Assembly (NCBI GenBank): GCA_002269645.1
Contig: NIVC01005164.1
Span: 1 to 24,077 of the forward strand
Reading direction: 5' to 3'
Length of the DNA: 24,077 bases
Origin: Macrostomum lignano
Taxonomy: Eukaryota
A model generated the notes under the pieces. It saw only the letters and a program-made list of their open reading frames with translations, had not been told where the DNA came from and made no database searches. The position numbers and the translations under genes are program-made. This document shows positions 119 through 24,077 of the stretch, one piece after another (within the stretch, counting starts at the first letter, position 1; each line of letters starts with the position of its first letter).

Positions 119-1219
119 TTAAAAACGCCTTTGCTTCTCCAACCGTTGAAACTGGCCGCCACTAGCTGCGCTCCAGTCAAAATTTTCTGGCGGCTTTGGC
201 AATTGATCTTCTGGACAGGCCAATAGATTTCTCTCGCGATGAAGTGCCCCCACTGCAACCATCCAATCTTCTTGCTCTTCGTGCTCATAAGTTGGCTGAG
301 CAGCAGATTGCGCATTTGCGTTGGTCATTTCGGGTAGCTCCGCAACTGCTTCGACTTCTTCGTCAGCTTCGTCGTTGCGCAAATCGTCCAAATTGGGCAG
401 CTGCAGCTCGCATCGATTCTCAGCAGGCATGGCTTCGTACGCTTGCTGCCAGCTTGTGTGCAAACCTTTGGCTTCTCGCTCATTTCGCCAACAACTGTAC
501 AACAAAACCTGCTGCCGATAATAGCCTTCGCGTCTTTCGTCTGATTGCTCATTCGGTCGAAAAAATGGACTGATTAGCAAAACTACTTGTTTCGGCCTTT
601 TTGTGCACCTCCCATTAGGGCTGAGACAGTAGTCGGAAAAGAAACGAAACATTGTTACATTTTCCAAATTCTTTGCACGCTTTGAATACTTGTCGCAACT
701 ATTCCTGCAAACACCCTTTTCCTCCACTGCGCGGGTTTCGCCAGTCTGAACAAAAACAAATTCTCGCGAACCCTTGTACATTGACGTCTGCAATAGCAAA
801 TGCATTGCCTCTTGCGCCGAATAATCACGCGCTCCAACTTGCGCCATCAAGTGTTGTTGTACAACACGCCTTGCAGTGTTGCTACGCTGAAAATTGTTAT
901 CGGCATTCTGTTCTGCATTATCTTCCAACTCCTTATGAAGACGCTTTGTCAGCTCCGCCATATAATCCGACTCCTTTTCGCTTTTTGTCGCATACTTGAT
1001 CAAATAGCGAATCAAATTCTTCACGGACGAAATCATTTGAACATCGACATTGGCTCTCCACATGCACAGCAACTGCGGACTGTGAGAAATCATTCGCTCG
1101 TCGTTGCGCTGCGTCTCAACTTGCCAATTTAAACGGGATACTCGCTTTGCAACAGTCTTTTCCTGCGGCTCGCGCGGATACTTGAATCGGCACTCTTGTT
1201 TGCCTTTTACTGTTCGCAA
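119..1219 (-). pseudogene. Helitron Rep C-terminal half (catalytic YxxxY motif and linker)
   Basis: LRTVKGKQECRFKYP, RNDERMISHSP..WRANVDVQ, YLIKYATKSE and RDYSAQEAMHLL are typical Helitron Rep blocks. It is joined to the upstream ORF by a frameshift near 1215-1222. Confidence 0.85.
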
Positions 1220-4200
1220 GCACTTTTACTGCAAATAGTGTGCCTCTCTGTCAAATGCGAAATTAACTGCAAATCTTGCTTGTCATTTTCAATCTCTTCC
1301 GGTTTCAGTTGAGCTGGATGACCTTGACCTGCTAAACTGCCATTCAAAACTTGATTTCCATAATCCGATTCGTCCATGGCCAAATTCCAACTACAGATGT
1401 ACTTGTCAACAAAGCTCGTCAATTCTTCTGCATTCAATGTATTCGATGTCACATCAACACCATCTGGCATCCAAATGCAACCGTGAACGTGTGGACTTCC
1501 GCGACTCTGATATTCTATGCGAAACCAATAATCGTTTACTTTCCAGTGCTCGACCAAAAAACGTTTCAAACATGTTTCAAATCGCAACCAAAACACAGTG
1601 TCTGCCATTCCGGGATCTTTTTGCAACTTTGACAACATTTCTGCTCTTAGTTCTACATTGCTTTCATATTGCTCTGCATCGATTCCCCAGGCATGCTGCA
1701 ACTCTGGCCAATGTACATCTGCTGCCGATAGTGTCACGAAAAAATGAGGAACACCAAGCGTTCGAATCATGGCTTCCAATTGCCGTCCTTTACTCTGCCA
1801 ATAAGCGCTTGTGCCTCGCAAATCTGATGCTCGAACTGACACGCTAGCCAATACTGCCGGGTCATTTAGTGCTTCAATCATTTCCTTGGCACTTAATCCA
1901 GCATACTTGTTGTCGTGTACAAACACGCGACCAACTTCCAGCGCCCTCCAACGCATCACCATATTTTCAATGTAAAATTTAAACCGCAAATCGGTACGAA
2001 ATCTTGGACACCGGAATTGCATCAAATGCTTTGCATAGTCGCCCAAACTTAGTCCAAAATTACGTGGCGTACTATAATCTCCTGCTCCATCCGGAAAGAG
2101 ATGAGGATAAGCCAATGTAAAATATCCTTCATCCTGAAATTCGTTTACCGGCTCGTTGCTTCTTGCTGGCCATTTCAATTTTTCACTCAAAAATTTGTCT
2201 CGTACTGCCGATTCCAATCGACGCAAAGGAGTCTCCAACAGCGAACTAATTGTTTCCTCGAGCTCGTTCGTCTCGTCCGCATTTTTTTCTACTTGTTGCT
2301 GCAATCGCTCAGCTCTGGCTGAGCCGCCTTCTTGCTGTGCCGCCTCGAAATTCACTTCATTGTCAGACTGCATTTCGACAATCATACCTTCTACTTGATG
2401 AGCATAACCATCTTCAGGCAGATGTAGCAACGCATCATTATTCATTGAAACCTGATACTGTCTAAAGTACTTGTTGTTTGCCATTAAATAGCGCATCGCA
2501 TTAGTCACTTTGTCGCGTCGAACTCGCAAATTGTTCATTGTGCCGCTTTGCGCTTCTCCAGGCTGAACACGGGCTCTTTCGTCGTACATTAAAACAACTG
2601 GCAGAGATCGTCTTGGCAGCTCTCGCAAAACGTGCGACTGATCTTGAGGCAACATGATTCCGTGTCCTCTCGATTTTGTTTGCTTTTGGGGAAAAATTTG
2701 TACCACAACAATAACCGACAAAACTGGCGAAATCAACATTTGCTCTGCTACACTCAAATCTTGCAAATCTTCTGGCTGCTCCAACATCGGAATCGCATTG
2801 TTTTCTTGGCTAAACGATTTCGGCTCATTGTCATCTCTGAAACAACGATCGCACATGTCTTCAGAATCGATGCTAAAATATTTTCCAGGAAACTTTTCCC
2901 TACACACGTAGCACTGTTTCAAATGTGATACTTTTGTTATGTTTTCATTGAAAAAGTCTTGCCTCATCTTTTTGAACTGGTCTGTGAACGGATTGCGAAG
3001 GCACTTTGGCAGATTAGGATCTCCGATTTCATCTTCAACAATTGGAGCATCTTGAGCGCTCTCTTCTGAAGTGCTGCTCTGCGGAACATTTTCTTTAGCT
3101 GGCTGCTGCTCCATTGTAGGCCGCTTTCTGGGTGACGAACGGATCGCTTCATCAGGCTTCTCCTGAGTAGCACGTGTCTTTCGTGGTGATGAATACGTAG
3201 AAGTAGCTGGAATATTATCAGACTGACGTTTATCTTGCTGCTCCTGCTGCAAAGGTGCCGTCTTCCTAGGCGACGATCGAACGGGTTCGCAGATATGATT
3301 TTCTGCGTTTGTCAATCTCTGTTTCCGTGGTAAAGAATTTGCATAGTTGACCACTTGCTGCTGGTTTTTCAAACGCTCGCTGCGACGAGTAGGAGCACTT
3401 GGTACAACGTCGCTCTTCTTTTCTCGACCTCTTCCTTTTTCCAAATGGCAAGAAACGCTTGAAACCGCCGAAACTGAGTCGCCACAACCGATGCAACTGC
3501 AACATGGTGCTCTCCGAGTGCGACTGCTTCTTCTCAATAAGCTCTGACCAGATACACTAGAGGCTGCAACAGACACAGACTCTAATGTGTTTGCTTTAGC
3601 GCTCAGTCGACTACTCCGACGCGTAGCGCAACTTGCCTTCCCAACATCCTTTTTACGCCGACTGCGCCGCGGAACATTTGATGGCACGGACTCTGACACA
3701 CGATCACTTTTAACTGACTCTGACACATGCTCAATTTCAACTGACTCTGCGCTATCCTCCGCGTCAAGATCGACATTCCAATTCCAGACAGAGTTGTTCC
3801 GATCCCGAAGCACTTCATATGAATTCGGATGCGCAAACAAACTCGTATTATTTTCCAAGGACTTTGCTTGATTTCTACAACGTCCCTTCCAATGCCTACT
3901 TTGAACTCGGGTCCAGTCTGCAACCTTTTCAAAAGGCGTCATTGGTGGAGCTGGAGGTGGCATCATTACAACAGGATCTTCGACAACATGAACATTCTCG
4001 TTGAGAGGGGGCATTTCCACATTCTTGGCGCTCAAATCTCCTTGGCCAGTCGGCCGAACTGAGCTTGCTTCATTAACTTCCAAATCATTGACACGAACGA
4101 TTTCGTAGTGTTGACTACCAGGATTAAACAACAATCGAATAGTAGCCAAACGTTCTCCAATATTCGGTCGGGAATAATGGCCAGGCCGCGCTAGATTAAG

Positions 4201-4601
4201 CATGTTTGACTGATAAATAAACACTTCTAGCCGCAACAGTTCACCAATTAGTTCTGGAACTCCGCATGGCACGTACATACGGGGACGCCTTGTATCGTCG
4301 CGCACTTTTTCCCAATTCAGTCCTGTTTGCATAATTCTTTCCTGATTATTGACATCGCGATGCACCCATTGCTCGAATTCTGCAGCAACCGCATCTCGAA
4401 AATCTTCTACGCTTAGCGATTGATAGGCGGAAAAACCTGGCAGTTCTTGTAATTGTCTCAATATGGCCGTGAAAAAACAGTTGCCGTCACCTCGTACATT
4501 CTCAACGCGACACGAAGAAAAAGGAACCCATACAGGTTGGACTTGTACAGCAGCAGTTACATGACCTTCGGCAAAATCCATTGCAGTAGCACCTGTTTCA
4601 T
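1207..4601 (-). CDS. Helitron Rep/Hel protein, main exon: OTU protease domain, basic/Ser-rich linker, Cys cluster, Helitron N-terminal region and HUH Rep motifs 1-2
   Basis: VRGDGNCFF...QHYE (OTU Cys/His at about 4478 and 4107), CYVC..CDRC, NEF..EGYFTLAYPHLFP.G.GD, GTSAYW, FFVTLSAAD and SPHVHG. A splice acceptor ttttacag|AT precedes 4601. Confidence 0.88.
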
Positions 4602-9121: not shown

Positions 9122-9169
9122 TGACGCAGCTCAAAGGTCGCGCTGACGCGCGACCTTTGAGCTGCGTCA
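9122..9169. repeat. Perfect 22-bp inverted repeat with a 4-nt loop
   Basis: tgacgcagctcaaaggtcgcgc-TGAC-gcgcgacctttgagctgcgtca. Confidence 0.95.
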
Positions 9170-9582: not shown

Positions 9583-9655
9583 GTCCGAAAAAATTGCCAA
9601 CGAGGAGCTACGCTCGCTTCGCTCGCTTCGCTCCTCGTTGGCAATTTTTCCGGAC
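9583..9655. repeat. 26-bp inverted repeat (25/26 match) with a 21-nt loop carrying (GCTCGCTTC)x2; candidate terminal stem-loop of a rolling-circle-type element
   Basis: gtccgaaaaaattgccaacgaggagc ... gctcctcgttggcaatttttccggac. The repeat is certain; the functional assignment is inference. Confidence 0.8.
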
Positions 9656-9772
9656 TGCACTTCGACCTAATTACAGCCAGTGGCCTCTATAACGGTAAAG
9701 TAATTATTACCTGAGCATGGCTGGATGTTCATATACGATATGATAAGGAGAGGGCATGCATGTACAAATTAC

Positions 9773-9780
9773 TATATAAG
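9773..9780 (+). promoter_or_regulatory. Candidate TATA box (TATATAAG) of the 13169 gene in the pre-insertion allele
   Basis: Consensus-like TATAWAWR. Removing the Chapaev element places it about 110 nt upstream of ATG 13169. Confidence 0.4.
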
Positions 9781-9803
9781 CAGCCACGCAAGTACAAATA
9801 AAC

Positions 9804-10044
9804 CACAGCACCCATGGAACATCTTTTAGGGAGAAAAAAAGTACGAAGCAATCCATTCAACTTTTCTTGTTCCATAGACACCTGTAGATGAAAAAAATGA
9901 AAAACAGAAAAAAATTTGCGATAGCTTCATGTTTTATTGCACTTTTTGAATTTTCATGTACTTTTAATTGGCAAAACAGGAAGACATTCCATAAAAACTG
10001 CCATTTCAGCTTACAGGTCATTAGCGAAATAAATTCAGCTACCT
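9804..10044 (+). repeat. Left terminal inverted repeat (241 bp)
   Basis: Reverse complement of 12845-13085, with about 5 mismatches that cluster at the inner end. Confidence 0.95.
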
Positions 10045-10548
10045 TTCTATCCCATACAGCCAAATAAATAACTAAAGACTTGTTTACATTGAAGCTAGTA
10101 TCTCTGCGAGTCACACACTGTTCAAATTAAAGTACCACTAGTCTTGCACAAAGTCTAGATTGATTTGAGTATTCAATGATCTACAGAGTAACTAAACCTT
10201 TATTTCTGGCTCACATAATCGATAGCATTTGATTGGCCAAATCGTTGTACACGCAGCTAAGCTGAATGAAATCAACCAATCGATTGCTTAACTTTAGGCG
10301 GCCAGTTTTTAACTTAACAGATGTACATCCACCAGACATTTACAATGCTGCACTCGTCTGAAAATTTCATGCCCGCAAGCAGGCCAACTATAAGGTTCAA
10401 TGAAAATGTACAATCATGCACTACAAACTCAGTAAACATCTCACAGTGATAGGAAAATCCACTCTATCCTAGCATAAAACAACGCCAACAAACTTCAAAT
10501 AAAGTTATATTCTATCATCAGTTTTATAGCACTTTTGATAGCTCTGCA

Positions 10549-12654
10549 ATGCCTTCAACGGCTTTAACTCATTCGGAGAATCGATTGAAAGTATGCCTGA
10601 TCTGCTTTAAAAAAGGAGCATCTCATGAACCTATTCGTGACGCAAATCTACAACGCATCAATCGAAATTTTATCGAAGATATTGACATCACTGATGAAAG
10701 TCTTCCAGCATCTTTGTGCGCTCGGTGTCGCAAACTTCTTCTTGATGTCGACAGTGGTAGAAAGCCAGTGGATGCTCTGCCCCAACCATATGACTTCTCA
10801 AAAGTGAAGCAGACAGCAGTCACACGACAGAATCCCCTGTGCCATTGTGATCTGTGTGAAGTCGCCCGGATGACTCCGATTGGTCAGGGGCTTGGCTCTG
10901 CCAAAGTTCCGGCTCACCCGATTGGCCGGCCGAAGAAATCCAACGACCAGCTGCCTGTAGCTTTGCCAGCTAAAATCTGCCGACGCTGCCTTTGCATCCT
11001 CCGGCGAGGAGTCAGTCACTGCTGTACCATCACTCAACGCAGGGAAAACCTGTGCACAGAGTACTCTGTGGACCAGCGAGGGGCTGAGATGCACGCAGCC
11101 AAAGTAATCAAAAGAAAAGCTGTCGATGCGCACGGTGCTGCTCCAATTCAACTGGCAACTCGTGGGCGTAATCTAACACTCAGTCTCCTAGCCCCATCAC
11201 AAGCTAAAAACTCGGCTGCTTTTTACGATTCGCCGATCTCAGCATCTGAAATGAGCTGCTTTCAGCAGGCGCTGAGTCTAAGCAGACGGCAAACGAGGAC
11301 TGCAGCGCAATTCTTCCGTAAGTGGAAAGGGCGGAAGTCAATTGAAGCAGGCCTGGAGTCGAAGTTGCAGCAGCTGGACAGCAGCCTCAGCGAGTATTTT
11401 TCGGTGACCGATGCAGAGTTTGAGATCAGCGGCGGTCAGAAGAAGCGCTGCTCCGTCGTATTCTGCAGGGACCCAGCAGGTCTCATTGATTACATGCTGC
11501 AACACCGGAGGGCGCCTTTTGGTTCTGAGTTCGTTGCAAAAGTTGGAATGGACAGTGGTGGTGATTTTCTGAAAATCTGTCTCAGCCTCATAGTTGACAC
11601 ATCAACTGATGCAAGTGACTTCGAGACTCAGGCTGCCGATGTCTGCTCAAGCCACTTTGCCGAAGGAGGTGTCAAGAGACTCATGCTACTAGGAATTGTT
11701 CAAGGAGTGAAAGAAACGTATGCCAACCTTAAGACCATGCTGGATCTTTTGAATATGAAAGGCGTCCGATATTACTGCTCGATGGACATGAAGATGGCCA
11801 ACATCTTCCTTGGGCTTCAGGCATGCAGCAGCTTGCATCCGTGTCCTTGGTGCGAGTGCAGGCGGAACCTTTTTGGTGATGCGCATCGTGACATCCAGCT
11901 GCGGACGCTCGGTGCCATTCGAAGAAATGCAGCCCAGTATCAGCAGGCAGCTCGGCAGCATCGGGGCAGTTTGCAGCTTGGAGCTGCCAACTTCAAGAAT
12001 TGTGTGCATGATCCACTAACAGATCTGCCTGACGACACCGAGGTTCTAACGATCGTGCCTCCAATGGAACTGCACCTGATGCTGGGAATTACCAACCGGC
12101 TGCTGGAAGAACTGGACACGCGACTCCAAGCGACAAATGACTGTTCGGTGCGCATTGATGACTGGCTTGCTCGACTGGGAGTTCAGCGACAGCCTCAGCA
12201 TGGCAGGCAGATAAACGGCAATGACTGCGCAAAGGTGCTGGAGTCAGTAGATCAGTTGGAGCAGATGGTCCGAGACTGCGATGCTTGCCTGGGAATGCCC
12301 GTTGTGTTTGCTCTGCGGTGCTTTCGAGAGGTAAAGAGAACCTGCTTCAGCCTTGAACTGCGCGATGGCTTCGAGACCGCCGTGGCTCACTTTGCTCAGG
12401 CTTACGCGGATCTCGGTATTAGCACCACGCCGAAGGTGCACGCGCTGATTGACCACGTGGTGCCTTTCCTCTCAAGCGCTGACAACAGGGAAGCCCGACA
12501 TGGACTAGGCTTTTGGTCTGAGCAAGCTGGCGAAGCTGTGCATCGCGATTTCAACAGCCTGTGGTGCCGCAGCTACAAAGTTAGTCCTACAAATCCTCAG
12601 TATGCACAACAGCTGCTGAAGTGCACTGTTGCGTACTGCTCGCGGCATTTGTGA
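10549..12654 (+). CDS. Chapaev/Transib/RAG1-core-related DDE transposase (701 aa)
   Basis: N-terminal Zn-finger-like CLIC..CARC and CHCDLC. Acidic triad candidates GMDSGG, SMDMK and SEQAGEAVH. RAG1-type Zn module CPWCEC ... TPKVHALIDH, plus ELHLMLG. Confidence 0.88.
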   Translation: MPSTALTHSENRLKVCLICFKKGASHEPIRDANLQRINRNFIEDIDITDESLPASLCARCRKLLLDVDSGRKPVDALPQPYDFSKVKQTAVTRQNPLCHCDLCEVARMTPIGQGLGSAKVPAHPIGRPKKSNDQLPVALPAKICRRCLCILRRGVSHCCTITQRRENLCTEYSVDQRGAEMHAAKVIKRKAVDAHGAAPIQLATRGRNLTLSLLAPSQAKNSAAFYDSPISASEMSCFQQALSLSRRQTRTAAQFFRKWKGRKSIEAGLESKLQQLDSSLSEYFSVTDAEFEISGGQKKRCSVVFCRDPAGLIDYMLQHRRAPFGSEFVAKVGMDSGGDFLKICLSLIVDTSTDASDFETQAADVCSSHFAEGGVKRLMLLGIVQGVKETYANLKTMLDLLNMKGVRYYCSMDMKMANIFLGLQACSSLHPCPWCECRRNLFGDAHRDIQLRTLGAIRRNAAQYQQAARQHRGSLQLGAANFKNCVHDPLTDLPDDTEVLTIVPPMELHLMLGITNRLLEELDTRLQATNDCSVRIDDWLARLGVQRQPQHGRQINGNDCAKVLESVDQLEQMVRDCDACLGMPVVFALRCFREVKRTCFSLELRDGFETAVAHFAQAYADLGISTTPKVHALIDHVVPFLSSADNREARHGLGFWSEQAGEAVHRDFNSLWCRSYKVSPTNPQYAQQLLKCTVAYCSRHL

Positions 12655-12844
12655 CCTGCTTTAATAGTAAGAACATTTTCTTTTTCTAAGTCTTTTTTTG
12701 TTTGCAATAGCAGATAGAAAAAATGTGTCTTTAAGCTATCTATAATATTTGTTTATGGTAAAAACTTATTTAAAAAACACTATTTAAAGTAGCCTAATGC
12801 ACTGCATATAAGTTTTTTTATCGGCCTGATAGTTTAAGTTAAGC

Positions 12845-13085
12845 AGGTAGCTGAATTTAATACGCTGATGACCTGCAAGCTGAAATGGCAGTTTTTATGG
12901 AATGTCTTCCTGTTTTGCCAATTAAAAGTACATGAAAATTCAAAAGGTGCAATAAAACATGAAGCTATCGCAAATTTTTTTCTGTTTTTCATTTTTTTCA
13001 TCTACAGGTGTCTATGGAACAAGAAAAGTTGAATGGATTGCTTCGTACTTTTTTTCTCCCTAAAAGATGTTCCATGGGTGCTGTG
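12845..13085 (-). repeat. Right terminal inverted repeat (241 bp)
   Basis: Ends ...GGGTGCTGTG and is followed by the TSD AAAC. Confidence 0.95.
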
Positions 13086-13168
13086 AAACAAATAGACAAA
13101 AACAGAATTGTATAAAATGATTTTTAAAAACCTTACTACTTCTAAAAAACAACTCTTTCTCTTTCAAA

Positions 13169-14539
13169 ATGAAAACTTTTAAAAGTTGTCATAGAGACCT
13201 CTATGAGGTCTGTATAAGCTGCGAAGTGTGCCTGCTTGGAGGCGTGTCCCCAAGACACAACGAGAATGAGAACTGTCTGGTCTCATGCTGGTTGGCATGC
13301 GACCAGTGCGGCACCGTCGAAGCTCTGCAGGAGGGAAAAATTCCAGCATATCATCGAGGACACAGGATCGTCAGCGATGACAAGAAAAAGCAAGAAAGTA
13401 ACCGCTGGAAAGTAATCCGCGCCATCAAAAAGAGCAACGAGAGAGAAAAGAAGATCCAGCAGAAAAAAGGAGCCAGCAGGAGTCTGCTATCAGCTCACTT
13501 GAGTCAAGTAATTGACTCTACATTGAAGAGGATGAGGCCAAGCGGGTCTTCAGCAGCTGCAGAATTTGAAGTTGAGCTGTCTGCTGGAGTCGAGGCTGCT
13601 GGAGTCGAGGCTGCTGGAGTCGAGGCTGCTGGAGTCGAGGCTGCTGGAGTCGAGGCTGCTGGAGTCGAGGCTGCTGGAGTCGAGGCTGCTGGAGTCGAGG
13701 CTGCTGGAGTTGAGGCCGCTGGAGTCGAGGCTGCTGGAGTCGAGGCTGCTGGAGTCGAGGCTGCTGCTGTCATAAACTTCATAGAGGAAGATGTCCTGGA
13801 TCAGTTCCTCAGGGAATTCAACGCTGGTCAGCAGCAGCAGCAACCTGTCTCTTCGGTTCCGGTGATTGCTGGAAAACAACTTCATCTAATTGAAGACGAC
13901 CACGAAATGGAAATCCTAGAAGAGGAGGGCAGCGACAATGAGTCGCATAATGCAATTGTGCCACCTGCAGCTCCAGCCGCCCCAGCTGCTCTGGCCGCCC
14001 CAGCTGCTCTGGCCGCCCCAGCTGCTCTGGCCGCCCCAGCTGCTCTGGCCGCCCCAGCTGCTCTGGCCGCCCCAGCTGCTCTGGCCGCCCCAGCTGCTCT
14101 GGCCGCCCCAGCTGCTCTGGCCGCCCCAGCTGCTCTGGCCGCCCCAGCTGCTCTGGCCGCCCCAGCTGCTCTGGCCGCCCCAGCTGCTCTGGCCGCCCCA
14201 GCTGCTCTGGCCGCCCCAGCTGCTCTGGCCGCCCCAGCTGCTCTGGCCGCCCCAGCTGCTCTGGCCGCCCCAGCTGCTCCAGCCGCCCCAGCTGCTCTGG
14301 CCGCCCCAGCTGCTCTGGCCGCCCCAGCTGCTCTGGCCGCCCCAGCTGCTCCAGCCGCCCCAGCTGCTCTGGCTGCCCCAGCTGCTCCAGCCGCCCCAGC
14401 TGCAGCCTCTACAATTCCAGCTTCTCAATCCGAAACTCCACCCGTGCCAGCTGGAGTTGCCTTCTTTCTGCCTCCTGTCGGCGGGGCTGGGTACGAGGTA
14501 ACGATTTTCGAAAATCGTATTAGAATTGTGCCGCTGTGA
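13169..14539 (+). CDS. Hypothetical protein (456 aa): Cys/His-rich N-terminus, Lys-rich segment and two tandem-repeat tracts
   Basis: Long ORF with non-repetitive N- and C-terminal parts (CxxC and CxxxCxxC motifs) and an AT-rich 5' and 3' context. No family recognised. Confidence 0.6.
   Translation: MKTFKSCHRDLYEVCISCEVCLLGGVSPRHNENENCLVSCWLACDQCGTVEALQEGKIPAYHRGHRIVSDDKKKQESNRWKVIRAIKKSNEREKKIQQKKGASRSLLSAHLSQVIDSTLKRMRPSGSSAAAEFEVELSAGVEAAGVEAAGVEAAGVEAAGVEAAGVEAAGVEAAGVEAAGVEAAGVEAAGVEAAGVEAAAVINFIEEDVLDQFLREFNAGQQQQQPVSSVPVIAGKQLHLIEDDHEMEILEEEGSDNESHNAIVPPAAPAAPAALAAPAALAAPAALAAPAALAAPAALAAPAALAAPAALAAPAALAAPAALAAPAALAAPAALAAPAALAAPAALAAPAALAAPAALAAPAALAAPAAPAAPAALAAPAALAAPAALAAPAAPAAPAALAAPAAPAAPAAASTIPASQSETPPVPAGVAFFLPPVGGAGYEVTIFENRIRIVPL
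13586..13765 (+). repeat. 15-bp coding minisatellite x12 (GGAGTCGAGGCTGCT; GVEAA)
   Basis: Direct reading; the copies are almost identical. Confidence 0.95.
13978..14407 (+). repeat. 18-bp coding minisatellite, about 24 copies (GCCCCAGCTGCTCTGGCC; APAALA, with APAAPA variants)
   Basis: Direct reading. Confidence 0.95.
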
Positions 14540-15421
14540 CTAAGCAATTTTTGTACTTTTTTGCTTTCTGTGTGGAGTGAGAAATCTACCCATTTATTGC
14601 AATTATTGCTAAAACTTTATTTCAACTAGCTTTTTAAAGTTGAAAGTAGGTACATTAATTAATGATTTGATCATCTCATAACTCTGTATTCGCTTCTAGG
14701 AATCTTGCTTATAAGTTTTCAGTTTTCATTTCCAAATTAGTTTTAAAAAAAGCTCGTAGCTCGTAGTGGCAACCAATATTTTTTTGGTATCCGAGGTAAA
14801 AAAAAATATTTGAAAAGTAGGTGAAACATTATACAGTTGAATTTAACAAATTAAAATCAACATAACATACTTTCAATAAATTGGTGATGTTTCGTATGCT
14901 TGGTGCGATTGATTAGGTATAATTTTCTTTCTACTGCTTTGACGCGGTGTTTCCTCATTCTTTAATTATTGAACTTTTCAGCTATATTTCTGCTTCTAAA
15001 CTCTCGTCTGTATTTGTAATTCATTGTTCCATGCATTGTTTATTGACTATGATTGCACCATGTGAATTCGATAATTTTTTTTAAAAATATATATATAATG
15101 TCAGCATTTTTCCACTCGGTGATTGGTTTGTTAATTAACTATTGGCTTCATTTTGCATTTTTTACCGATTGAGTCTGCGTAGGAGGCAAATAGAAACGAA
15201 CTTTTACGAATAGGGATCAATAGAATATGCATGCAGAGAGCTAGCTTAAGGGAGAACCAAAAAAATATAACCAGCATCTACTAGCTTGTAAGTGTGGATA
15301 TTGTACCAGTATTGCAGCAATAAAGACTTACGAAAAAGATTTCCAATATTCACTCCCAGTTGCTTATGACACTCAGTTGCAGCCAGTAAACACTGTCAGC
15401 TTTTAACTGCTTGCCTTTTCT

Positions 15422-15860
15422 ATGGTTGAGCACTCCTGGATGGAGCAGGAGAATGACCACTCATGGATGGAGAATGACCATTCATGGATGGAGAATGACC
15501 ACTCATGGATGGAGAATGACCACTCATGGATGGAGAATGACCACTGATGGATGGAGAATGACCACTCATGGATGGAGAATGGCTACTCGTGGATGGAGGA
15601 TGACCACTCGTGGATCGAGTATGACCACCCTTGGGTGGACCATGACGTCAGCAGCGAGTCAGCAGCCAGCAGCGAGTCGGCAGCCAGCAGCGAGTCGGCA
15701 GCCAGCAGCGAGTCGGCAGCCAGCAGCGAGTCGGCAGCCAGCAGCGAGTCAGCAGCCAGCAGCGAGTCAGCAGCCAGCAGCGAGTCAGCAGCCAGCAGCG
15801 AGTCAGCAGCCAGCAGCGAGTCAGCAGCCAACAGCGAGTCGGTGACTGATGCACACCAAG
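15422..15860 (+). CDS. Predicted first exon of pPolB, made of WMENDHS heptads and SSESAA repeats; contains one TCA>TGA stop at 15545-15547
   Basis: ATG at 15422. The frame is open except for the TGA, which sits where other units have TCA. It ends at a consensus donor CAAG|gtaagt (phase 1). Confidence 0.55.
15437..15649 (+). repeat. 21-bp repeat, about 10 units (TGGATGGAGAATGACCACTCA), degenerating to the right
   Basis: Direct reading. Confidence 0.92.
15650..15841 (+). repeat. 18-bp repeat, about 10.7 units (AGCAGCGAGTCRGCAGCC; SSESAA)
   Basis: Direct reading. Confidence 0.95.
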
Positions 15861-16076
15861 GTAAGTGCCTTTATTTATCCTTTTCAACTTACTTAAAAAT
15901 TTTCTTATCAATGCGATGTATATTATGCAGTCTAAAATTTTAGTCCAAAGAATGGGAGAAGGGGAGATAAAAGACTTTATACCGGTAGGGTTGTACATGT
16001 ATGCTTGGGTACAGACGTTTAGTTTAGTATCTTTGGCAGCAAAAAACAAAAATATTATCCTAAAACCACAAACCAG
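15861..16076 (+). other. Predicted GT-AG intron (216 nt) in the pPolB gene
   Basis: gtaagt donor, AT-rich body and accag|GT acceptor. Splicing gives G|GT (Gly), in frame with the PolB reading frame, which is closed by TAA at 16061. Confidence 0.55.
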
Positions 16077-19000
16077 GTTCAACAGTCAGCTTCAGCAGAG
16101 TTGCCCAAGCCTATGATCAATCACTGGAAATACTGAGGCTCAGATCGAGTCACCCAGACACGCTTCCGTCAGAATTTTTTGTCCAAGCTGGAGACAAAAT
16201 TATTGAGGCAGTTCAGCAAAGAATTTCAAGACATCATTACAAAGTTCAGCTAAAGGCGAATATTCGAATGGTCCGAATAAGAGATGGGGAGATGCTTGCC
16301 GAAGAGGACAGATGGATAAGCTGTAAAATGCAAGCCCTAGACCTAGGTGGTGAAGCAGGCCGTTTAAACAACTGGTTGATTGAGCAGGAGCAGGAGTTGG
16401 AGAGGATCTGTAGTATGATTAATACGAACGGCAGTGGCTGGACAATTAAACAAATTAATTTTCTAGACATCAACCTTGCCAGGTACAATCCAATTCGATT
16501 TCGCCAGGGCAGAGCCGTTAGATTCAATCTTCCTGCCAGTTTGAAGAACAAAAAGGCTGTTATCAATCCACCGAGCACAGGCAAAGACTGTTTCCTGTAC
16601 GCCTGTCTCGCTGCACTGCACAGCGCCGATCCGAAAGTTCAGAAATCGCCCAACAGAATATCCTCTTACGATGAATGGTTGCGTGAGCTGGACTTTGCAG
16701 AAATCTCCATGCCAGTGAGTGTCGCTGATATCGATCGCGTCGAGTCTAACAATCCAGGAATTTGCATTTCTGCGTTCTCTTGGCAGCAGGGCAGTGTGAC
16801 TCTTCTCCGTCGCCGCAAGCATGAGTCAGATGACCGAAGACACCTCATGCTTTTGCTGTTAAAGACAGCTACGGATCGGAGCACTGGTGTGCAATTACTA
16901 ATTTTGACAGGTTAATGAACAGTCGTAATGGTCCCGCCATGAGGAAGTGGTGCACGAAATGTTTAACATCATTTTATAGCAACGAGAGGCTTCAAGAGCA
17001 CAGGAACGAATGCAGCATTACTGCAGAAAATCCTGTCAAAGAAACGCTTCCAGTTCCAGGACAGAATGAAATAAAGTTCCAAACTGTCAAAACACTGTCA
17101 GTCCACCATTCGTTGCCTATGCCGACCTGGAAGCCATTTTGCGAGCGAACACAGACCCTGCTAACCTGATCTCAAAGCATGAACCATGTGCAGCAGCTTT
17201 TCTTGCAGTGCCTCGTGAAGGCATGACAGGACCTCCGCTTAGGCCAGAAGGAGACATGTACAAGGTCTTTTGCAATGCGGACCCTGATGAGTGTATCCTT
17301 GGTTTTCTCAAATCTCTTGAAAGCCTGGCTCAGGATATATTTCACTGGAACCAGAAGCATAGCCACCAGCCGGCTGACCGATCATCCGCGACCGTCATGG
17401 ATGATTTCAATTCTGCTGAGGTATGTCACTACTGCAAGAAGAACTTTAAAAGTTCTACAGATAAACATTTTGACCACGATCATTTAAATGGACAGTACAA
17501 AGGTGCAGCATGTCAAGAATGCAACCTGCGAGCACAGCTCCGACGCCGGTTTCTGCCCCTGGTTTTTCACAACTTAGGCGGCTACGACCTTCATCTTCTA
17601 CTTTCCACTGCGCTTGGGAGCATGAAAAATTGGAAACTTAGTGTTGTTCCGCAATCATCCGAGCGATACTTGTCACTAAGGGCGGAATTCCCGTTGCAAG
17701 TTACGTAAAGAACGGAAAAGTTGTGCCAATCATGTTTACAATTCAGTTCATCGACTCGCTCTGCTTTTTGAAGGGAAGTTTGTCCAATTTGTTTGCTAAT
17801 CTTCCCGAAGCTGAATGCAAGCTGACAATGCAAATGCTTGAGTCAAGACCACATCTTTCAAGAGAGCTACTTCGAAAAAAAGGGATTTCCCATATGATTA
17901 CCTCACAGGATTTGAGATTCTCGAGCAGTCGGTTTTGCCGCCTAAAGATGCTTTTTTTAATCGACTTTCCGATAGGGGAATTTCCGACGACGACTACAAT
18001 AGAGCAAGAGCGGCATGGGCGGCATTTCAATGCAAAAGTTTGAAGGATTATATGCTCGCCTATCTTGAAATGGATGTAAGGCAGCTGGCTGACATTTTCG
18101 AGACATTCCGACAGGCCAGTCTGAAAGAGGACGGATTGGATCCGGTACACTACTTTACTACTCCTGGTTTGTCTTACGACTCAGCTCTAAAGTCGACTGG
18201 AGTGGTTCTAGAGCAGCTGACTGATGCTGACATGTATCATCTGTTTGAGAAGGGAATACGAGGAGGCATGTCCTTCATTAATGTGCATTGCGTCAAAGGT
18301 AATAATCCTAGCTTGCCAGGTTATGATGATCAGCAAGAGAGTGTAAGCCTCATGCCGATCGATATGAACAACTTGTATGGCTTTGCCCTGTCGCTTCCGC
18401 TTCCATGCAGGGAATTCAGGTGGGTACCGGAACAGGAAATCCAGTTCTGGGACTCCAATCGGTTTCTGTCACTCAATCCAGAAGCCGAGATCGCCTACCT
18501 TGTTCAACTCGATCTAGAATACCCAGCTGAGATTCACGATTCGACTCAGGAGTTACCGTTTGCACCTGAAAAATCAAAACCACAGCCAGATCAATTCTCG
18601 CCGTACATGGCCGAACTATGGAAAGAGATTGCTGAACAGCGAACTGGCAATGCTGAAGCTAAGTTTCAAGCAACGGAGAAGCTTCTACTCACCTGTACCG
18701 ACAAGGATTCTTACGTAGTTCACAGCACCGTTTTAAGATTTTACCTGCAACACGGAATGCGGATCAAGTGCGTCAAAAAAATGATTTCGTTCAAGCAGGA
18801 AAATATTTTCGCGCCGTACATTGCCAGCAACAATGAAAAAAGAGCTTTGGCAACTTCCGAGTTTGCTAAGGATTTTTACAAATTGAAAAACAATTCTCTC
18901 TTTGGAAAAACTATGGAGAACGTTCGAAAAAGATGCGATGTTCGAATTTGCACTAACCAGACTCAAGCAGAAACTTGCGCCTCTCGACCAAACTGTGCCG

Positions 19001-19722
19001 CATTCTCGATTATCAATGAGTCGTTGAGCATTTTTCAGCTCAAAAAAGATAAAGTCACGCTTGACAAGGCCATTTTCGTTGGCCAGGCAGTTCTCGATCT
19101 CTCTAAGATGGCCATGTACAGCCTACTATATGACAGGCTCCGACCGCTGTTCTGTCATTCAGACGGTTCCAGAGACATGATGCTTTGCGGAGGTGATACT
19201 GACTCATTTTTTCTAGCTTTCAAGAATCATGATTTAACATCGGAGGTAATCCCGAAGCTTAGAGAGGAAAAAATACTTGACACATCCAACTATTCTCGAG
19301 ACCATCCGCATTTCTCTGAAGAGTTAAAAGGAAAGCTGGGCTGCGTTAAAGATGAATCTGCTGGTGGAATTTACCAGGAGTGGATTCTTTTGCGTCCAAA
19401 ACTTTATTCGTTTCTCCCTGCCGAGAATTCGAGTGCAAAGATCAAGAAAACTGCCAAAGGCGTGAAGCAGTCAGTAGTAAGACAGCAAATTTCGCATGCG
19501 AACTATGTCGACGCGTTCGAGTCCAAGCAAGAGCAGATGGTTGCCATGACAGCGATTGTTTCCAAGAAACACGAAATCTTCACGTCGGTCATGGAGAAAA
19601 GAAGCCTATCGGTGTGGGAGGATAAGCGAGTGTGGCTTAGCAGTAATCGAAGCCTGCCCTACGGACACTATGCGCTGACGCCCGCATCCCACGATCAGCT
19701 GAAGCGCATCCGACTGGTCTAG
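16077..19722 (+). CDS. polB: Protein-primed family B DNA polymerase (Maverick pPolB), split by four apparent 1-nt deletions (about 16862, 17082, 17691 and 17888)
   Basis: After frame repair: NKKAVINP..DCF.YA, HWCAI, a C2H2-like CTKC..H..C, ExoI YADLE, an EndoVII-like CHYC..DHDH..ACQECN, ExoII HNLGGYD, FIDS, KGIFPYDY, YLEMDV, motif A DMNNLYG, motif B KLKNNSLFGK, motif C GDTDS, RPKLY and KTAKGVK. Confidence 0.93.
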
Positions 19723-20296: not shown

Positions 20297-20308
20297 TTTA
20301 TTTTTATT
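20297..20308 (-). promoter_or_regulatory. Tandem AATAAA polyadenylation signals overlapping the TBP-like stop codon; another at 20241-20246
   Basis: The minus strand reads GAATAAAAATAAAA at the end of the ORF. Confidence 0.5.
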
Positions 20309-20876
20309 CAATGGAAAGAACTACATTGAGTAGACGCATGCTATCGGTATGCAACTGATTCAAGGACCGAGCTCCACTGAGAACAAAAGAGCCGCTGTGA
20401 AAAAGCAGACATTTACAAAAGTTTAAATTGAAAATTAAAGCAGAAAAGGATTCTGGTTCATATTCGGCGTTTGGGATAATTGATTTTAACATTAATAAGG
20501 AAAGTGCGGAATGAACTGGGAGCTGTCCATGAGCAGTAATAGTTTTAATTCGAACACAAATTGTTTGATGAGGCAGCAGTTGAGCCGGCACTCTCCGATG
20601 CAGCATAGCCACGAAGCGACGGGCAGCCCTTTTGGCGTCTGCGTGGGTCTTGGCACCGCAGATGCTCAGTTGCCCAGTAGGGTAGAGTAGGAGAGTCACT
20701 CTGGGAATCCGCATCCGCTTGATGAGCACCCGGGGCCAGACGGGCCGGTAGATCACATGAGCCATGCTGAGAGCCAGTTCCCGTAGAGGCAGCTGAGCGC
20801 CCCTGCCACCATCCAGTCTCAGATCTACTCCGCCAACCAGATTGGTCACTCTTAGGGCTGTAGCTGGTGGGCTCAT
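20304..20876 (-). CDS. Divergent TATA-box-binding protein (TBP)-fold protein, about 190 aa, core only
   Basis: Two TBP repeats: LRVTNLVGGVDL..LPLRELAL..YRP..LIKRMRIPRVTLLLYPTGQLSICGAKTHADAKRAARRF, and IKTITA..NAEYEPESFSALIF..LLFHSGSFVLSGARS. First ATG at 20876; the ORF track starts it at a TTG at 20915. Confidence 0.85.
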   Translation of the reverse strand: MSPPATALRVTNLVGGVDLRLDGGRGAQLPLRELALSMAHVIYRPVWPRVLIKRMRIPRVTLLLYPTGQLSICGAKTHADAKRAARRFVAMLHRRVPAQLLPHQTICVRIKTITAHGQLPVHSALSLLMLKSIIPNAEYEPESFSALIFNLNFCKCLLFHSGSFVLSGARSLNQLHTDSMRLLNVVLSIE

Positions 20877-20917
20877 TTCGATCGTCAACTTCTTCACCAA
20901 ATCTGCTTCTGCCAACT

Positions 20918-21395
20918 TTACTGCTCGTGTGCCACGGACACTGCTCGCTTCTTAAGTTGATGCAGAACTTTGGCTTAAGCCAACTGTAGTGCAGCAACGA
21001 ATTTCTCACTGCACAGCCAGTATCTGAATCTTCAGTCGAGGGTGCTCCCAAATCTTCTAGGTTATAAACCTGTCTTCCAAGCAGCTCAGTCAGAAAAATC
21101 GACTTCCTTTCCCCATTTGACCAGATCGGACCACTGGCAATGCTCAGAATGTCTTCCGCCAGTTCCATGTACGGACGGGTTCCATCATTCCACTTAAACT
21201 GGTGCAGACTCTTAGATAGCTGTCTGTAGTAAACTCGCATGTCAGGTGAGACTCTCTCCCATGGATACGGAGGTGCGTACACATGGTGAGCAATGCGGTA
21301 GCTCCCCGCTCTGATTTGAACAACTGCCAACTCCTTCACAACAAATTTTTTGCTTGTGCTGTTGCACGGAATCCTTGGAAGTCAATGTAGTTCAT
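20918..21395 (-). CDS. Maverick-associated small protein with a DEDD-exonuclease-like N-terminal motif; frameshifted at about 21348, C-terminal end uncertain
   Basis: Repaired start MNYIDFQGF...KKFVVKELAVV, followed by PPYPW, LHQFKWNDG, NGERK..FL, VYNLEDLGAP and CAVRN..L..WL. I recall this pattern from arthropod-type Maverick ORFs. Confidence 0.6.
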
Positions 21396-21424: not shown

Positions 21425-22117
21425 TCAGTCCACCTTCTTATATACTTTTCTGGCAGGCAGTTTCAGCCAGGCTGTGTTGCTCCCGTACCCCTTGACTAGA
21501 CTCTCCTGTTCTTTCTCCAGTTCACCCCCTCTGCTGGTTGCCATTTTCTTCTTAACTGATTTACCAATAGCGGAAAGCGGAACATTAAGCTTTTTCTGCT
21601 GCAGAAAATCGATGAACTCGTTCCACCCAACTGGTTCACGCTCACATGGCGAATCCCTCACTGTGTGCTGAATCAAGTCCAGTATGTTTGAGGAAGGGAT
21701 TGACGTGCCTGCGATTTCCACCTCCCCGTTTTCACAAACTCGAATCAGCTCTGGATTGGTGGACAGGATCGTCCACAGACTGCGAGCCCTGGTTTTGAAT
21801 TTCTGTGGCACCGACTTGCTGATCTTCTCTTCCCAGGTGCTTATCTGGGGTGTCTCTGTTTTCATCAACTTGGCTTCAGTATTGCGTGCTCCTTCTTTTC
21901 CAGCGTGCTTGCGCTTGGCCAGCAAACTTTGCATTGCACTTTGGTACATGGCGGTTTTCACATCTTCTGGACAATCCTCGGCATACAAGATGTCATCGCA
22001 TTTCTTCTGAGCCTGCTTCAAGTCAGCTTCAGTGGTAGTCTCATTTGGCTTCAAATTCTGCATCAACATCTCATACTCTGCTTTAGGAATCAGAACCATT
22101 TCTGAAAATTTGTTCAT
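21425..22117 (-). CDS. Conserved Maverick hypothetical protein (230 aa)
   Basis: Intact ATG ORF with MVLIP, RARSLW.IL, GEVEIAG..IPSSNILDLI, PVGW.EF and NVPLS.IG, a pattern I recognise from Maverick ORFs near the ATPase. Confidence 0.7.
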   Translation of the reverse strand: MNKFSEMVLIPKAEYEMLMQNLKPNETTTEADLKQAQKKCDDILYAEDCPEDVKTAMYQSAMQSLLAKRKHAGKEGARNTEAKLMKTETPQISTWEEKISKSVPQKFKTRARSLWTILSTNPELIRVCENGEVEIAGTSIPSSNILDLIQHTVRDSPCEREPVGWNEFIDFLQQKKLNVPLSAIGKSVKKKMATSRGGELEKEQESLVKGYGSNTAWLKLPARKVYKKVD

Positions 22118-22421
22118 TTTGCTTCTTCTTCTTTACCAGCTTAAGCAGAATCGGGAGTATTTTGATGAAGCCAGCCTTCAACAAGTCTGTCTTTCTTCTT
22201 TTGTGAGTAATTTTTCGAATTATCTCTTTTGACTTTGCAAGAACAGCTTTTTCATCGAGCGAAAACGATAGATTGTTTTGTAAGAGATTATGGCAGGCCT
22301 CGACAAGAAAATAACGCACTTCTTTTGGACAATTTTTTATCAACAGCCGCTTGAAGCGCACGGTATATTTAGGTGACGCAAGAACCGCAAACAGACTTGC
22401 ATATGAATCAAGCACTTCCAT
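22083..22421 (-). CDS. Small basic conserved Maverick protein (about 112 aa from ATG 22421)
   Basis: LLIKNC....FLVEACHNLLQNNL...KEIIRKI...GFIKILPILL. It lies directly downstream of the ATPase, as is common in Mavericks. Confidence 0.65.
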   Translation of the reverse strand: MEVLDSYASLFAVLASPKYTVRFKRLLIKNCPKEVRYFLVEACHNLLQNNLSFSLDEKAVLAKSKEIIRKITHKRRKTDLLKAGFIKILPILLKLVKKKKQNEQIFRNGSDS

Positions 22422-22454: not shown

Positions 22455-23105
22455 TCACTTTCTTAAGCAAATACAAGATGGGGTCGCTGGTTGGGCAAAT
22501 TCTGGCCCGCACTCGCAGCTCATCGGGAGTTGATGGGTGAAATCCAGGAACAGGTAGCTCCCCTGCCCTGCGCGGTCACGTGCTTGAACACTGACAGCAG
22601 AAAGCCGGGCTTCTCTGTAAAGCACTGCCTGCCCAGTGCTGCAATCTGCAGCTGGTCTCTGGGGTTTTTCAAGATAGCTAAATACATTACATTCAAGCTC
22701 ATTGTTCGCGACTCTTTTCCCTTGAAAAATATATTCTGAGTCAGCATCACCAAAAAGCACGGCAAGTGATGTGCGATTCCTGTGAAAAAATTTCGCATTG
22801 AAGCAGAGTTTGAAGTTTCCTCTATTAAGTCATCGAAAACAACCAGGTCATTGGCCTAAGTGCTGCCTCGATGTTGGTGGGAAATCCCTGGCGCAGCTGC
22901 ACACCTAGGCTGCTCAGTTCTGCATGGCCTGCCTGTGAGATCCCATAGTACCACAGAACTCTGCCAGGCTTCACATCAAACATGACGTCTCTGTACTGGA
23001 TCAGGTGTTTGACAAAGGTTGTTTTTCCTGCATTGGTGGGCCGCAGACAATCATGCAGCTTCCCTGCCTGAGGCGGATATCGTAGCAAACTTGCTTTTCT
23101 CCCAT
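22455..23105 (-). CDS. FtsK/HerA-type (A32-like) packaging ATPase, split by four apparent 1-nt deletions (about 23039, 22853, 22561 and 22526)
   Basis: Repaired sequence: MGEKQVCYDIRL..CMIVCGPTNAGKTTFV (Walker A), LVVFDDL (Walker B), FTGIAHH, TQNIF, RTMSLN, KNPRDQLQI, YLFLDF and ELRVR. Confidence 0.88.
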
Positions 23106-23139
23106 GTTTAATGCATAAATATAGTCACGACATCTTTTT

Positions 23140-23634
23140 CTTAAGTTGGCTTCAAACCTCTGTAAGATTCTATCATTCAAATGATTTTTTTCATTAGCAT
23201 GCAAATGCTTCAAAATCCCTCAAATGACCGATTGAACAGAAACTTTTGATAAGCAAAATAGATGCAAAACATCCGCATTTATTAGAGTTAGCACATTGAA
23301 CTCTGTTTATATTGCTTCGGAGCCAAAAGCCAGTTGTTTTAATCTCTCGAAACAAATTATAAACCAAAGATAAAATTTCAGGTTCCCAGCCGAGGGAGTT
23401 GAACAACTCAATGCGATTTCCTTGCCCAACATAGCACACCACCCAGTGACCAAATGAGCCATTGTGCTGAAGTAGGACAAAAACAAACTTGTTTTCAAAG
23501 GAAATTGATGATCTAAATTTTCTTTTTACATTCAAGGGCAGAGAATTTTTATAGCGCAAATGTAAAGTAACTATGAGAAATTTTTGGTAAGGCAAAAATT
23601 TTCTGGCGAGATTAAGTAGTTGAATTGCATCCAT
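23140..23634 (-). CDS. Adenain-like cysteine maturation protease, with two apparent 1-nt deletions near the C-terminus (about 23267 and 23218); 3' end approximate
   Basis: GHWV (His), ELFNSLG (Asn in place of the usual Asp), VQ...NKCG (Gln/Cys). The repaired tail is FCIYFAYQK..SFEGIL..NDRILQRF. Confidence 0.85.
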
Positions 23635-23639
23635 GTCAA

Positions 23640-24077
23640 TTAAGATGAATAGTCCAGCAAAAGCTCCCGGTGCTTGGTGACCTCAATCAACGAGTCATAC
23701 AGGCACATAGCAATCAGGGACACCCGCTTCATTCAGAGCCTGTTGGAAGCGAATCTCCAGCCGCAGGTTGCCCTCCTTCTGTCCGTACCACAGAGCCGCT
23801 CCCTCGGGTGTGAGATCGAATGCAAACACCGTGCTGTTGTTGGAGAAGAGCTGGTAGGGGATCCACGGACCGAGTTTGTGTGGCTTGCAGATTGACAGCT
23901 TTTCAGGTAGTGCAAGTATTCTCTTAGAAAGGAATTGTTTTCAGGTGTGAAGGCGCCGTGGCACACGGTTTCCCCACCTTTCTTTAGAGCCAATCGGCTA
24001 AGGTTGAAGCTCTGGAACTGGAACGGGCTCGCGTGATGATGACCGTTGAATGCTCGGTGGCTCACGAAGGCCAGCAT
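23640..24077 (-). CDS. Major capsid protein C-terminus (partial), with frameshifts at about 23901 (-1) and 23724 (+1)
   Basis: AFNG...SPFQFQSFNL, REY, then in the repaired frames TVFAFDLTPE...GNLRLEIRF..AL and YDSLIEVTKHRELLLDY*, which match the Maverick MCP C-terminal pattern. Confidence 0.87.

Follow-up and report, generated by a model that had tools for sequence, protein, structure and literature searches.

What would a virus-like transposable element of an animal do with a TATA-binding protein (TBP) of its own? The question is raised by a Maverick/Polinton in a stretch of 24,077 nt from Macrostomum lignano (contig NIVC01005164.1; here called the window), in which an initial annotation, made from the letters alone, had noticed an intronless, indel-free open reading frame (ORF) of about 190 codons made only of two TBP repeats and had suggested that it encodes either a promoter-specificity factor or a decoy. 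The gene and its repeats lie as follows:

20304..20876, minus strand: TBP-like gene, 190 aa, two TBP repeats, N-terminal tail absent
20598..20852, minus strand: TBP repeat 1, residues 9-93, GC 0.58, wholly overlapped by the upstream ORF
20325..20558, minus strand: TBP repeat 2, about residues 107-184, GC 0.37, strongly divergent between subfamilies

We found this description of the ORF to be correct: it runs from ATG to TAA without an intron, and its 190-aa product matched the Pfam TBP family over two stretches (PF00352, E value = 7.9e-25, 87 bits against a cut-off of 22.9). Freedom from indels holds for the reading frame but not for the alignment with cellular TBP, which contains small insertions and deletions. 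The best sequence match in the PDB was an archaeal TBP (1mp9, E value = 2.1e-18). Structure prediction found the TBP fold as well: the best of five AlphaFold models (pLDDT 85.9, pTM 0.73; the other four, pLDDT 62-72) matched TBP crystals in Foldseek (E value = 2.5e-13, TM 0.75-0.81). Judged by sequence and model, the protein is a two-repeat member of the TBP family with a saddle fold. It is not a canonical TBP, which is defined by four intercalating Phe residues and two central Asn residues, a set that the aligned sequence does not contain in full.

Next, we looked at the genes around the TBP. The initial annotation placed it within a minus-strand Maverick gene block, and the gene order was confirmed: the end of the major capsid gene, protease, ATPase, a 112-aa ORF, a 230-aa ORF, an exonuclease-like ORF, and the TBP, with a protein-primed DNA polymerase B (pPolB) gene converging on the plus strand.

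23695..24077, minus strand: major capsid gene, 3' end, in pieces, ends at the contig end
23194..23634, minus strand: adenain-like protease (Peptidase_C5 E value = 0.004, below cut-off), no candidate promoter word upstream
22455..23124, minus strand: packaging-ATPase-like gene with P-loop, broken into pieces in the window copy
22083..22421, minus strand: 112-aa basic conserved ORF, no family match
21425..22117, minus strand: 230-aa conserved Maverick ORF, no family match, no candidate promoter word upstream
20545..21395, minus strand: upstream "exonuclease-like" ORF, running with its final 111 codons over TBP repeat 1 in a different frame
20297..20308, minus strand: candidate poly(A) signal, a pair of AATAAA hexamers at the stop of the TBP gene
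16268..19722, plus strand: pPolB gene, in pieces in the window copy, no private word in this arm
13169..14539, plus strand: 456-aa repeat-rich left-arm ORF, with a canonical TATA-like TATAAAA at 13111, 58 nt upstream
9667..9803, no strand: Maverick left-arm remnant, resuming at 13086 past an inserted transposon

The pPolB gene matched DNA_pol_B_2 (E value = 2.4e-9 in the window and 7e-14 in stretch L043). The capsid, ATPase, and protease assignments are putative and draw on weak matches together with position. For the ATPase, P-loop matches were below the cut-off and Pox_A32 was not matched, and its position and motifs fit; the 427-aa capsid candidate had no Pfam match, and its size and position fit. 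The first Atlas match of this capsid candidate (0.98) was a cluster with a DJR-like domain in 24% of its members, at a recognition score under the tool's bar. The label "exonuclease-like" survived only in part: a short motif is present, but there was no Pfam, PHROG, or significant PDB match, and the predicted fold reached a pLDDT of 31. This ORF is 283 aa long in other copies and is frameshifted near its 5' end in the window. A look-alike adjoins a TBP in one other stretch (L096), where the BLASTP comparison was not significant. In the window copy the pPolB, capsid, ATPase, and upstream ORFs are frameshifted, and the TBP gene is identical in DNA to 24 other loci. The AATAAA reported to overlap the TBP stop was also found, with hexamers at 20303-20308 (overlapping) and 20297-20302; an AATAAA lies near the stop in 24/29 distinct copies. 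Among the sequencing runs that contain the stretch, none is recorded as RNA; in four runs that might be RNA, contigs covered the gap between the converging genes evenly in three and were interrupted there in one, with no joints visible, and we base no conclusion on them.

A search of the M. lignano genome with the TBP gave 152 matches, which fell into groups near 100, 89, 80, 77, 75, and 38% identity; among the 150 matches listed, 28 had internal stops. A protein 99% identical to the TBP is assigned to M. lignano by its source. The 38% group is a second family (family B, about 26 near-full-length matches), whose TBP is 37% identical to that of the window's family (family A). The exonuclease-like gene stood directly upstream of the TBP in 58/58 loci with an unbroken TBP ORF, so that the gene recurs at the same position in sister Maverick copies and in the second family, and capsid, ATPase, or pPolB genes flanked it in 8/8 long contexts, as in a Maverick; the copies examined were mainly the best-scoring ones. 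The integrase lies beyond the window's end and was seen in a sister copy (L042; rve E value = 1.8e-12, plus a chromodomain). A family-B copy (G000:C291) of 12,862 bp has inverted repeats of ~1 kb, AGTAGT ends, and identical 6-bp flanks indicating a target duplication, and several of its ORFs are split in the assembly. A family-A copy on C1785 has an AGTAGT left end and a matching repeat at the contig end, and a family-A copy measures ~23 kb including a 6-kb insertion, which makes an element of ~17 kb. These elements share with known Mavericks/Polintons the pPolB, the rve integrase with chromodomain, the putative ATPase, protease, and capsid-like genes, the AGTAGT termini, the terminal inverted repeats, and the 6-bp target duplication. 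Beyond this set they have the TBP, a gene whose product contains a PC4 coactivator domain, and a word that recurs upstream of their genes. The PC4-domain gene is present in both families (E values of 5.5e-8 and 8.2e-5 in family A and 0.0044 in family B, of which only 5.5e-8 exceeds the cut-off), at positions that differ between the families and with a canonical TATA before each:

L135:8281-9057, L042:7130-7858, and L151:3130-3510: PC4-domain genes

Its product could have a role in transcription or could bind single-stranded DNA in replication. The family-B element on G000:C291 (L150-L151) sits inside a tandem repeat between exons of what ORF motifs suggest is an ABC-transporter-like host gene. 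A third capsid group, 52% identical, is deleted beyond the ATPase.

We then compared the residues of the TBP across these families, using what we take to be yeast-type residue numbers, anchored on the host TBP core. Repeat 1 keeps N69 and V71 and has Pro for F99, Tyr for F116, Ser for V122, Cys for T124, and Gly for T73; repeat 2 keeps F190, F207, and the E186-P-E188 loop and has Thr for N159, Thr for V161, and Ser for P191. The earlier reading of F190 and F207 as kept, F99 and F116 as altered, and N159 as Thr is thereby upheld against the host core. Among 18 aligned rows of element proteins and their relatives, N69, V71, F190, F207, E186, and E188 were kept in 18/18 and Y116, P117, C124, G73, and T159 were common to 18/18; V161 (Thr or Ser), V122 (Ser or Thr), and P191 (Ser, Thr, or Asn) varied. 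Position 99 is Pro in family A, with Trp at 98; the family-B alignment is uncertain there, and a Pro-Arg pair is present. The loss of F99 recalls TBP-related factor 2 (TRF2). The basic residues of helix 2 in repeat 1, which presumably bind Mot1 and NC2, are mostly kept in family A, and family B is without the basic patch. We assume that E186 and E188 form the acidic loop that contacts TFIIB and that V122 and T124 lie near TATA bases 5-6; all base contacts beyond those of the Phe pairs are likewise taken as given here. On alignment evidence, the protein retains the TFIIB-contact loop and has a remodelled DNA face. The same DNA-face changes recur in outside relatives and in two families that are only 37% identical, which suggests that a new surface was selected and speaks against decay. 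The conservation of the E186-P-E188 loop may serve folding. As described in PMC3142196, the first TATA step is kinked by TBP's C-terminal pair of Phe residues and the last step by the N-terminal pair; given these roles and the kept and changed residues, the half of the protein that reads the 5' end of a TATA element is kept and the half that reads the 3' end is remodelled alike in both families.

The remodelled first repeat is also the part of the gene that is overlapped by another frame, an overlap that the initial annotation had missed. The upstream ORF stays open for 108-130 codons into the TBP gene in 28/29 distinct copies, in both families, and the chance of such an open overlap arising from codon usage was 0.007-0.018 per family. 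Silent divergence was 0.48-0.67 in the overlap, about half that of the upstream domain (0.98-1.16); changes in the overlap follow the TBP frame, and the sequence of the extension is not clearly conserved. In one gene model (P0011) the two frames are joined into one. Where the overlapping ORF stops, there is also a breakpoint in identity:

20531..20546, no strand: approximate fixed subfamily exchange point, where the TBP repeats meet and the overlapping ORF stops

In 8/8 pairs identity dropped within the TBP gene, near +330 to +345, falling in six pairs from 92-100% to 65-75% in repeat 2 and ~45% past the stop, and in the window's subfamily GC changes from 0.58 to 0.37 at this point. Across five subfamilies, identity was 86-98% for repeat 1, 55-69% for repeat 2, and 51-76% for pPolB. 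The drop and the subfamily identities together indicate that the structural block has been re-joined to different pPolB sides inside the TBP gene. Dual coding was rejected as the main cause of the similarity of repeat 1 between close subfamilies; since the upstream genes are equally similar, we attribute that similarity to the exchange point. Exchange of replication and morphogenic modules has been described for this virus group (10.64898/2026.10.13.758929).

To ask whether the gene is maintained, we estimated dN/dS among nine family-A copies, whose pairs are not independent. For repeat 1, dN/dS was 0.05-0.30 in 36/36 pairs, and for repeat 2 it was 0.06-0.32 in 24/36 pairs, the other 12 being saturated. 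Values of 0.05-0.32 are far below 1, with none of the near-neutral decay of a host retrocopy envisaged in the initial annotation, and the family-A TBP is under purifying selection. Three older family-B copies gave dN/dS of 0.67-0.75, as expected of dead insertions, and young family-B copies, which have few differing sites, showed 4-6 replacement and 2-5 silent changes in repeat 1. Both families have an open frame, as do outside relatives that are 31-76% identical.

We also asked where the TBP came from. The host genome has a canonical TBP and a TRF2; each was seen at three loci, with the core in a single open frame (L068-L073). The element TBP is 24-29% identical to host TBP and 20-27% identical to host TRF2, and it did not group with either one: a single clade with host TBP was rejected (p-AU = 0.013), as was one with host TRF2 (p-AU = 0.0045). 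The element TBPs and six outside relatives formed a single clade with a support of 98 (FastTree, 158 rows) and 99 (IQ-TREE, 33 chosen rows). This clade was placed among short metagenome TBPs with a support of 95, a placement made unsure by long branches. With the element TBP alignment, we found no close relatives in viral or metagenome contig collections, and with the capsid and with a further alignment (A3), none in viral contigs. None of 47 loci found via neighbouring short TBP alignments had a tblastn match to the element's other genes, and the loci inspected among them were giant-virus-like, archaeal, or cellular. The only one of those loci that was Polinton-like by Pfam lies on metagenome contig WNGO01029324.1 (L108, 707-3078), where an A32 ATPase, a double jelly-roll capsid gene, and a less divergent TBP stand in a row, with a canonical TATA before the TBP. 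Its TBP falls outside the element clade, which hints at a separate capture of TBP, possibly by a Polinton-like element.

If the element TBP selects promoters, its target genes might share an upstream word. We compared the 150 nt upstream of each gene, and the top k-mers in one family-A copy were TTAAGAA and CTTAAGAA, from which we derived the pattern [CT][ACT]TAAGAA, tuned after its discovery on that family-A copy. The word is TATA-like and takes the form CTTAAGAA, with mostly TATAAGAA or TATAAAAG in family B. In three copies it was found upstream of 8/11 and 8/12 genes (family A) and 5/12 genes (family B). In the two family-A copies, which are ~70% alike in DNA, 8/8 sense matches in each lay 42-149 nt before a gene start, and antisense matches numbered 0 in one and 1 in the other. 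The genes behind the word in family A are those for the integrase, minor capsid, a small ORF, major capsid, ATPase, the 112-aa ORF, the exonuclease-like ORF, and the TBP; no word was found upstream of the protease or the 230-aa ORF in this family. The five family-B occurrences (expected, 0.55) are at positions matching those of family A, and one word there is just 12 nt before its ATG. The P values for word placement (5e-5) are post hoc. The window contains the following matches:

20949..20956, minus strand: CTTAAGAA, 80 nt before the TBP start and inside the upstream ORF, candidate private promoter
21435..21442, minus strand: TATAAGAA, 47 nt before the exonuclease-like ORF
22460..22467, minus strand: CTTAAGAA, 46 nt before the 112-aa ORF
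23138..23145, minus strand: CTTAAGAA, 44 nt before the ATPase gene

In stretch L136, CTTAAGAA occurred 5 times against 0.53 expected (1 of 200 shuffles); over the whole window it was not enriched, with 3 matches, a number reached by 13 of 100 shuffles. The word occurs in all three codon phases and outside ORFs, and it is therefore not a peptide motif. It is kept upstream of the TBP itself: CTTAAGAA lies 65-83 nt upstream in 26/26 distinct family-A copies, and TATAAAAG lies at -53 in 3/3 family-B copies. The pPolB arm had no sense match to the word in three stretches. A canonical TATA stands before the PC4-domain genes (at -112, -84, and -56) and before the family-B pPolB (at -98).

As a control, we used two other Polinton families of the same genome, found by a capsid-family search. 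The TBP HMM matched 0/10 stretches of these families (14-20 kb, some ending at contig ends) and recovered 2/2 positive controls. In four copies of the two TBP-less families, the word stood before 0/12, 0/9, 0/10, and 0/9 genes (0/40). This control contrasts two related TBP families with two other lineages, and shared ancestry could explain the match of the word between the TBP families; its absence from the TBP-less families is supportive, not proof. Of the two TBP-less families (L160-L179), one has TATTCAA before 5/12 and 5/9 genes, which could be a motif of its own or chance, and in stretches of the other no integrase match was seen.

Support for a role as a promoter factor comes from the TBP fold, the fixed position of the gene in both families, the purifying selection seen in family A, the presence of the word here and not in TBP-less Polintons, and the retention of the loop beside a remodelled DNA face. 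Of the two functions initially proposed, the promoter-specificity option gained support, from the shared upstream word that TBP-less Polintons of the genome do not have. We think it probable that the element TBP binds the word, and probable too that it recruits host TFIIB and RNA polymerase II (Pol II) for a late gene programme. In such a scheme, host TBP would first read pPolB, the PC4-domain gene, and the 456-aa ORF from ordinary TATA boxes. The element TBP would then be made, from the canonical TATAAAAG in family B and from the private word in family A, where a TBP gene behind its own word would give positive feedback. The protein would bind the word through the minor groove, with its two kept Phe residues kinking the 5' end and its changed first repeat suiting the G in TAAGAA. 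Finally, TFIIB would dock via the kept loop, possibly with help from the element's PC4-domain protein, and the late targets would be the integrase, capsid, and packaging genes and, in family A, the TBP itself. A more far-reaching version, which we advance tentatively and credit with slightly less than an even chance, is that an animal Maverick lineage has a minimal one-protein viral pre-initiation system, independent of herpesviruses, in which a re-specified TBP and a private TATA word sort early from late genes, the TBP regulates itself and is helped by PC4, and the second lobe is exchanged at a fixed point so that chimeric TBPs are routine.

Another explanation, which we consider rather unlikely, is that host TBP or TRF2 reads the word as an ordinary, weak TATA box and that the element TBP is a decoy or repressor, soaking up TFIIB, TFIIA, NC2, or Mot1 or blocking promoters and so tilting transcription toward the element or quieting it. 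The DNA face gives this explanation some substance, as F99 is lost and F116, N159, and T124 are changed, and TRF2 offers a precedent, being described as without TATA binding, able to bind TFIIA and TFIIB, and able to inhibit by sequestering TFIIA (PMC3142196). The family-B words are near or equal to a canonical TATA, so that host TBP could be able to read them, and PDB titles include complexes of wild-type TBP with the TATA variants G(-26) and T(-30). Family A keeps the basic helix-2 residues to which we ascribe Mot1/NC2 binding, but family B is without that patch. Moreover, a decoy accounts poorly for the same DNA-face changes across families (Y116, P117, C124, and T159 in 18/18 rows), which suggest a selected surface, for the retention of F190, F207, N69, and V71, and for the absence of the word from TBP-less families. 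It is more doubtful still that the element TBP reads the word but starts transcription through an element-encoded partner, as herpesvirus ORF24 does, or through a TFIIB relative such as Brf for Pol III. Several conserved ORFs without a family match and the PC4-domain gene could supply a partner, whereas the protein is confined to the TBP core and has none of ORF24's additional domains, its TFIIB loop is kept, and the downstream genes are protein-coding with AATAAA signals.

Two further explanations dispense with promoter recognition altogether. We think it very improbable that the TBP fold serves as a DNA bender in replication, integration, or packaging and that the word is unrelated. That repeat 2 changes along with the downstream pPolB side between subfamilies would fit such a role, but across the five subfamilies the identity of repeat 2 follows that of pPolB only loosely, and the word is tied to gene starts and the coding strand. 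Least credible is passive cargo, in which a copy of host TBP was captured and then multiplied as the element amplified: 25 identical loci show that many copies are recent, and older family-B copies decay nearly neutrally, but dN/dS is far below 1 at saturated silent sites, the frame is open in two families and outside relatives (31-76% identity), and the protein does not group with host genes, so that this explanation is already largely refuted. A promoter factor acting through host TFIIB and Pol II is the reading that we carry into the comparison with known systems.

The closest functional parallel is found in beta- and gammaherpesviruses, whose viral TBPs (EBV BcRF1, KSHV/MHV68 ORF24, HCMV UL87) are described as redirecting host Pol II to late promoters with the word TATT (PMC4893493). 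Both systems combine a TBP-fold protein, no RNA polymerase of their own, and structural genes with a non-canonical TATA word, and by this analogy the element TBP most likely works like a herpesvirus viral TBP. The word common to the structural genes is analogous to that of the viral pre-initiation complex (vPIC) but is a different word. The proteins differ as well: as far as that source describes them, herpesvirus viral TBPs are large, multi-domain, ~10% identical to TBP, and part of a six-protein complex that binds Pol II directly, whereas the element TBP consists of no more than a 190-aa core that shares 24-29% identity with host TBP and retains the TFIIB loop, and its element measures 13-17 kb; no homology of the accessory proteins was noted. 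On this comparison the element TBP is not a member of the vPIC class, which is marked by a multi-domain protein with five partners; at most it would work alike.

Among cellular proteins, the element TBP shares the saddle fold with TBP and TRF2, and TRF2 has likewise lost intercalating Phe residues and keeps the E186-P-E188 loop; the element TBP keeps F190 and F207, which host TRF2 partly changes, and shows no orthology to host TBP or TRF2. TRF2 is described as not binding TATA (PMC3142196, PMC10005294). The TBPs of Nucleocytoviricota and mirusviruses are alike in being viral proteins with the TBP fold, and structural matches in BFVD reached an E value of 2e-10 at a sequence identity of at most 20%. 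These viruses are far larger than the elements and generally have RNA polymerase subunits of their own, and two NCLDV-like contig TBPs fell outside the element clade. A TATA-binding protein is listed as a core mirusvirus gene (PMC10132985), and among the elements treated in the relevant part of PMC10675990, TBP is given only for mirusvirus-like ones.

[quoted passage not shown] Starrett et al. (2021) mark a "TBP" where they map the genes of MELD viruses (PMC8502044, Fig. 5 legend; preprint 10.1101/697771, legends of Figs 5 and 6), so that a gene resembling TBP has been marked before in a linear, midsize DNA virus or related element with an adintovirus-like PolB; in those legends it is a label only, with the carrier element not stated and no promoter word, selection test, or mechanism attached, and section 3.4 of the article does not take it up. 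Beyond this label, a search whose scope left out most subscription journals and Repbase found no report of a Polinton TBP. The initial annotation's remark that it knew of no such system is to be softened in view of the MELD label and the established viral TBPs of herpesviruses; within that search, the system itself was not described for Mavericks. The outcome is an element-borne TBP under selection, to which the present analysis adds a candidate private word and its absence from a negative control; herpesviruses already provide the logic. If the proposed mechanism is true, one small protein suffices for an element of 13-17 kb to take charge of promoter choice by Pol II, in parallel with herpesviruses. 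For the control of Maverick genes, and for a virus-like early/late cycle in animals, a private TBP and its word give a concrete and cheap test, and they would offer TBP variants from nature, altered in their DNA face and with a target word already predicted, in an experimental-model host, M. lignano.

The window also shows other features in and around this copy. The left end of the Maverick is absent before 9667, and hairpins were seen at 9122-9169 and 9583-9655. A DNA transposon, which we take to be Chapaev/Transib-like, occupies 9804-13085 inside the left arm; its inverted repeats are 241 nt long and start CAC, and it carries a transposase-like ORF of 701 aa (10549-12654), with no Pfam match over the cut-off; the empty site in G000:C1785 shows a 4-bp duplication. 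Helitron-like Rep/helicase ORFs lie on the minus strand at 119-4581 (Helitron_like_N, E value = 1.3e-30), with an OTU-like start. Long tandem repeats with units of 15, 18, and 21 nt lie inside the left-arm ORFs at 13536-14503 and 15406-15882, and their copy numbers vary between copies of the element.
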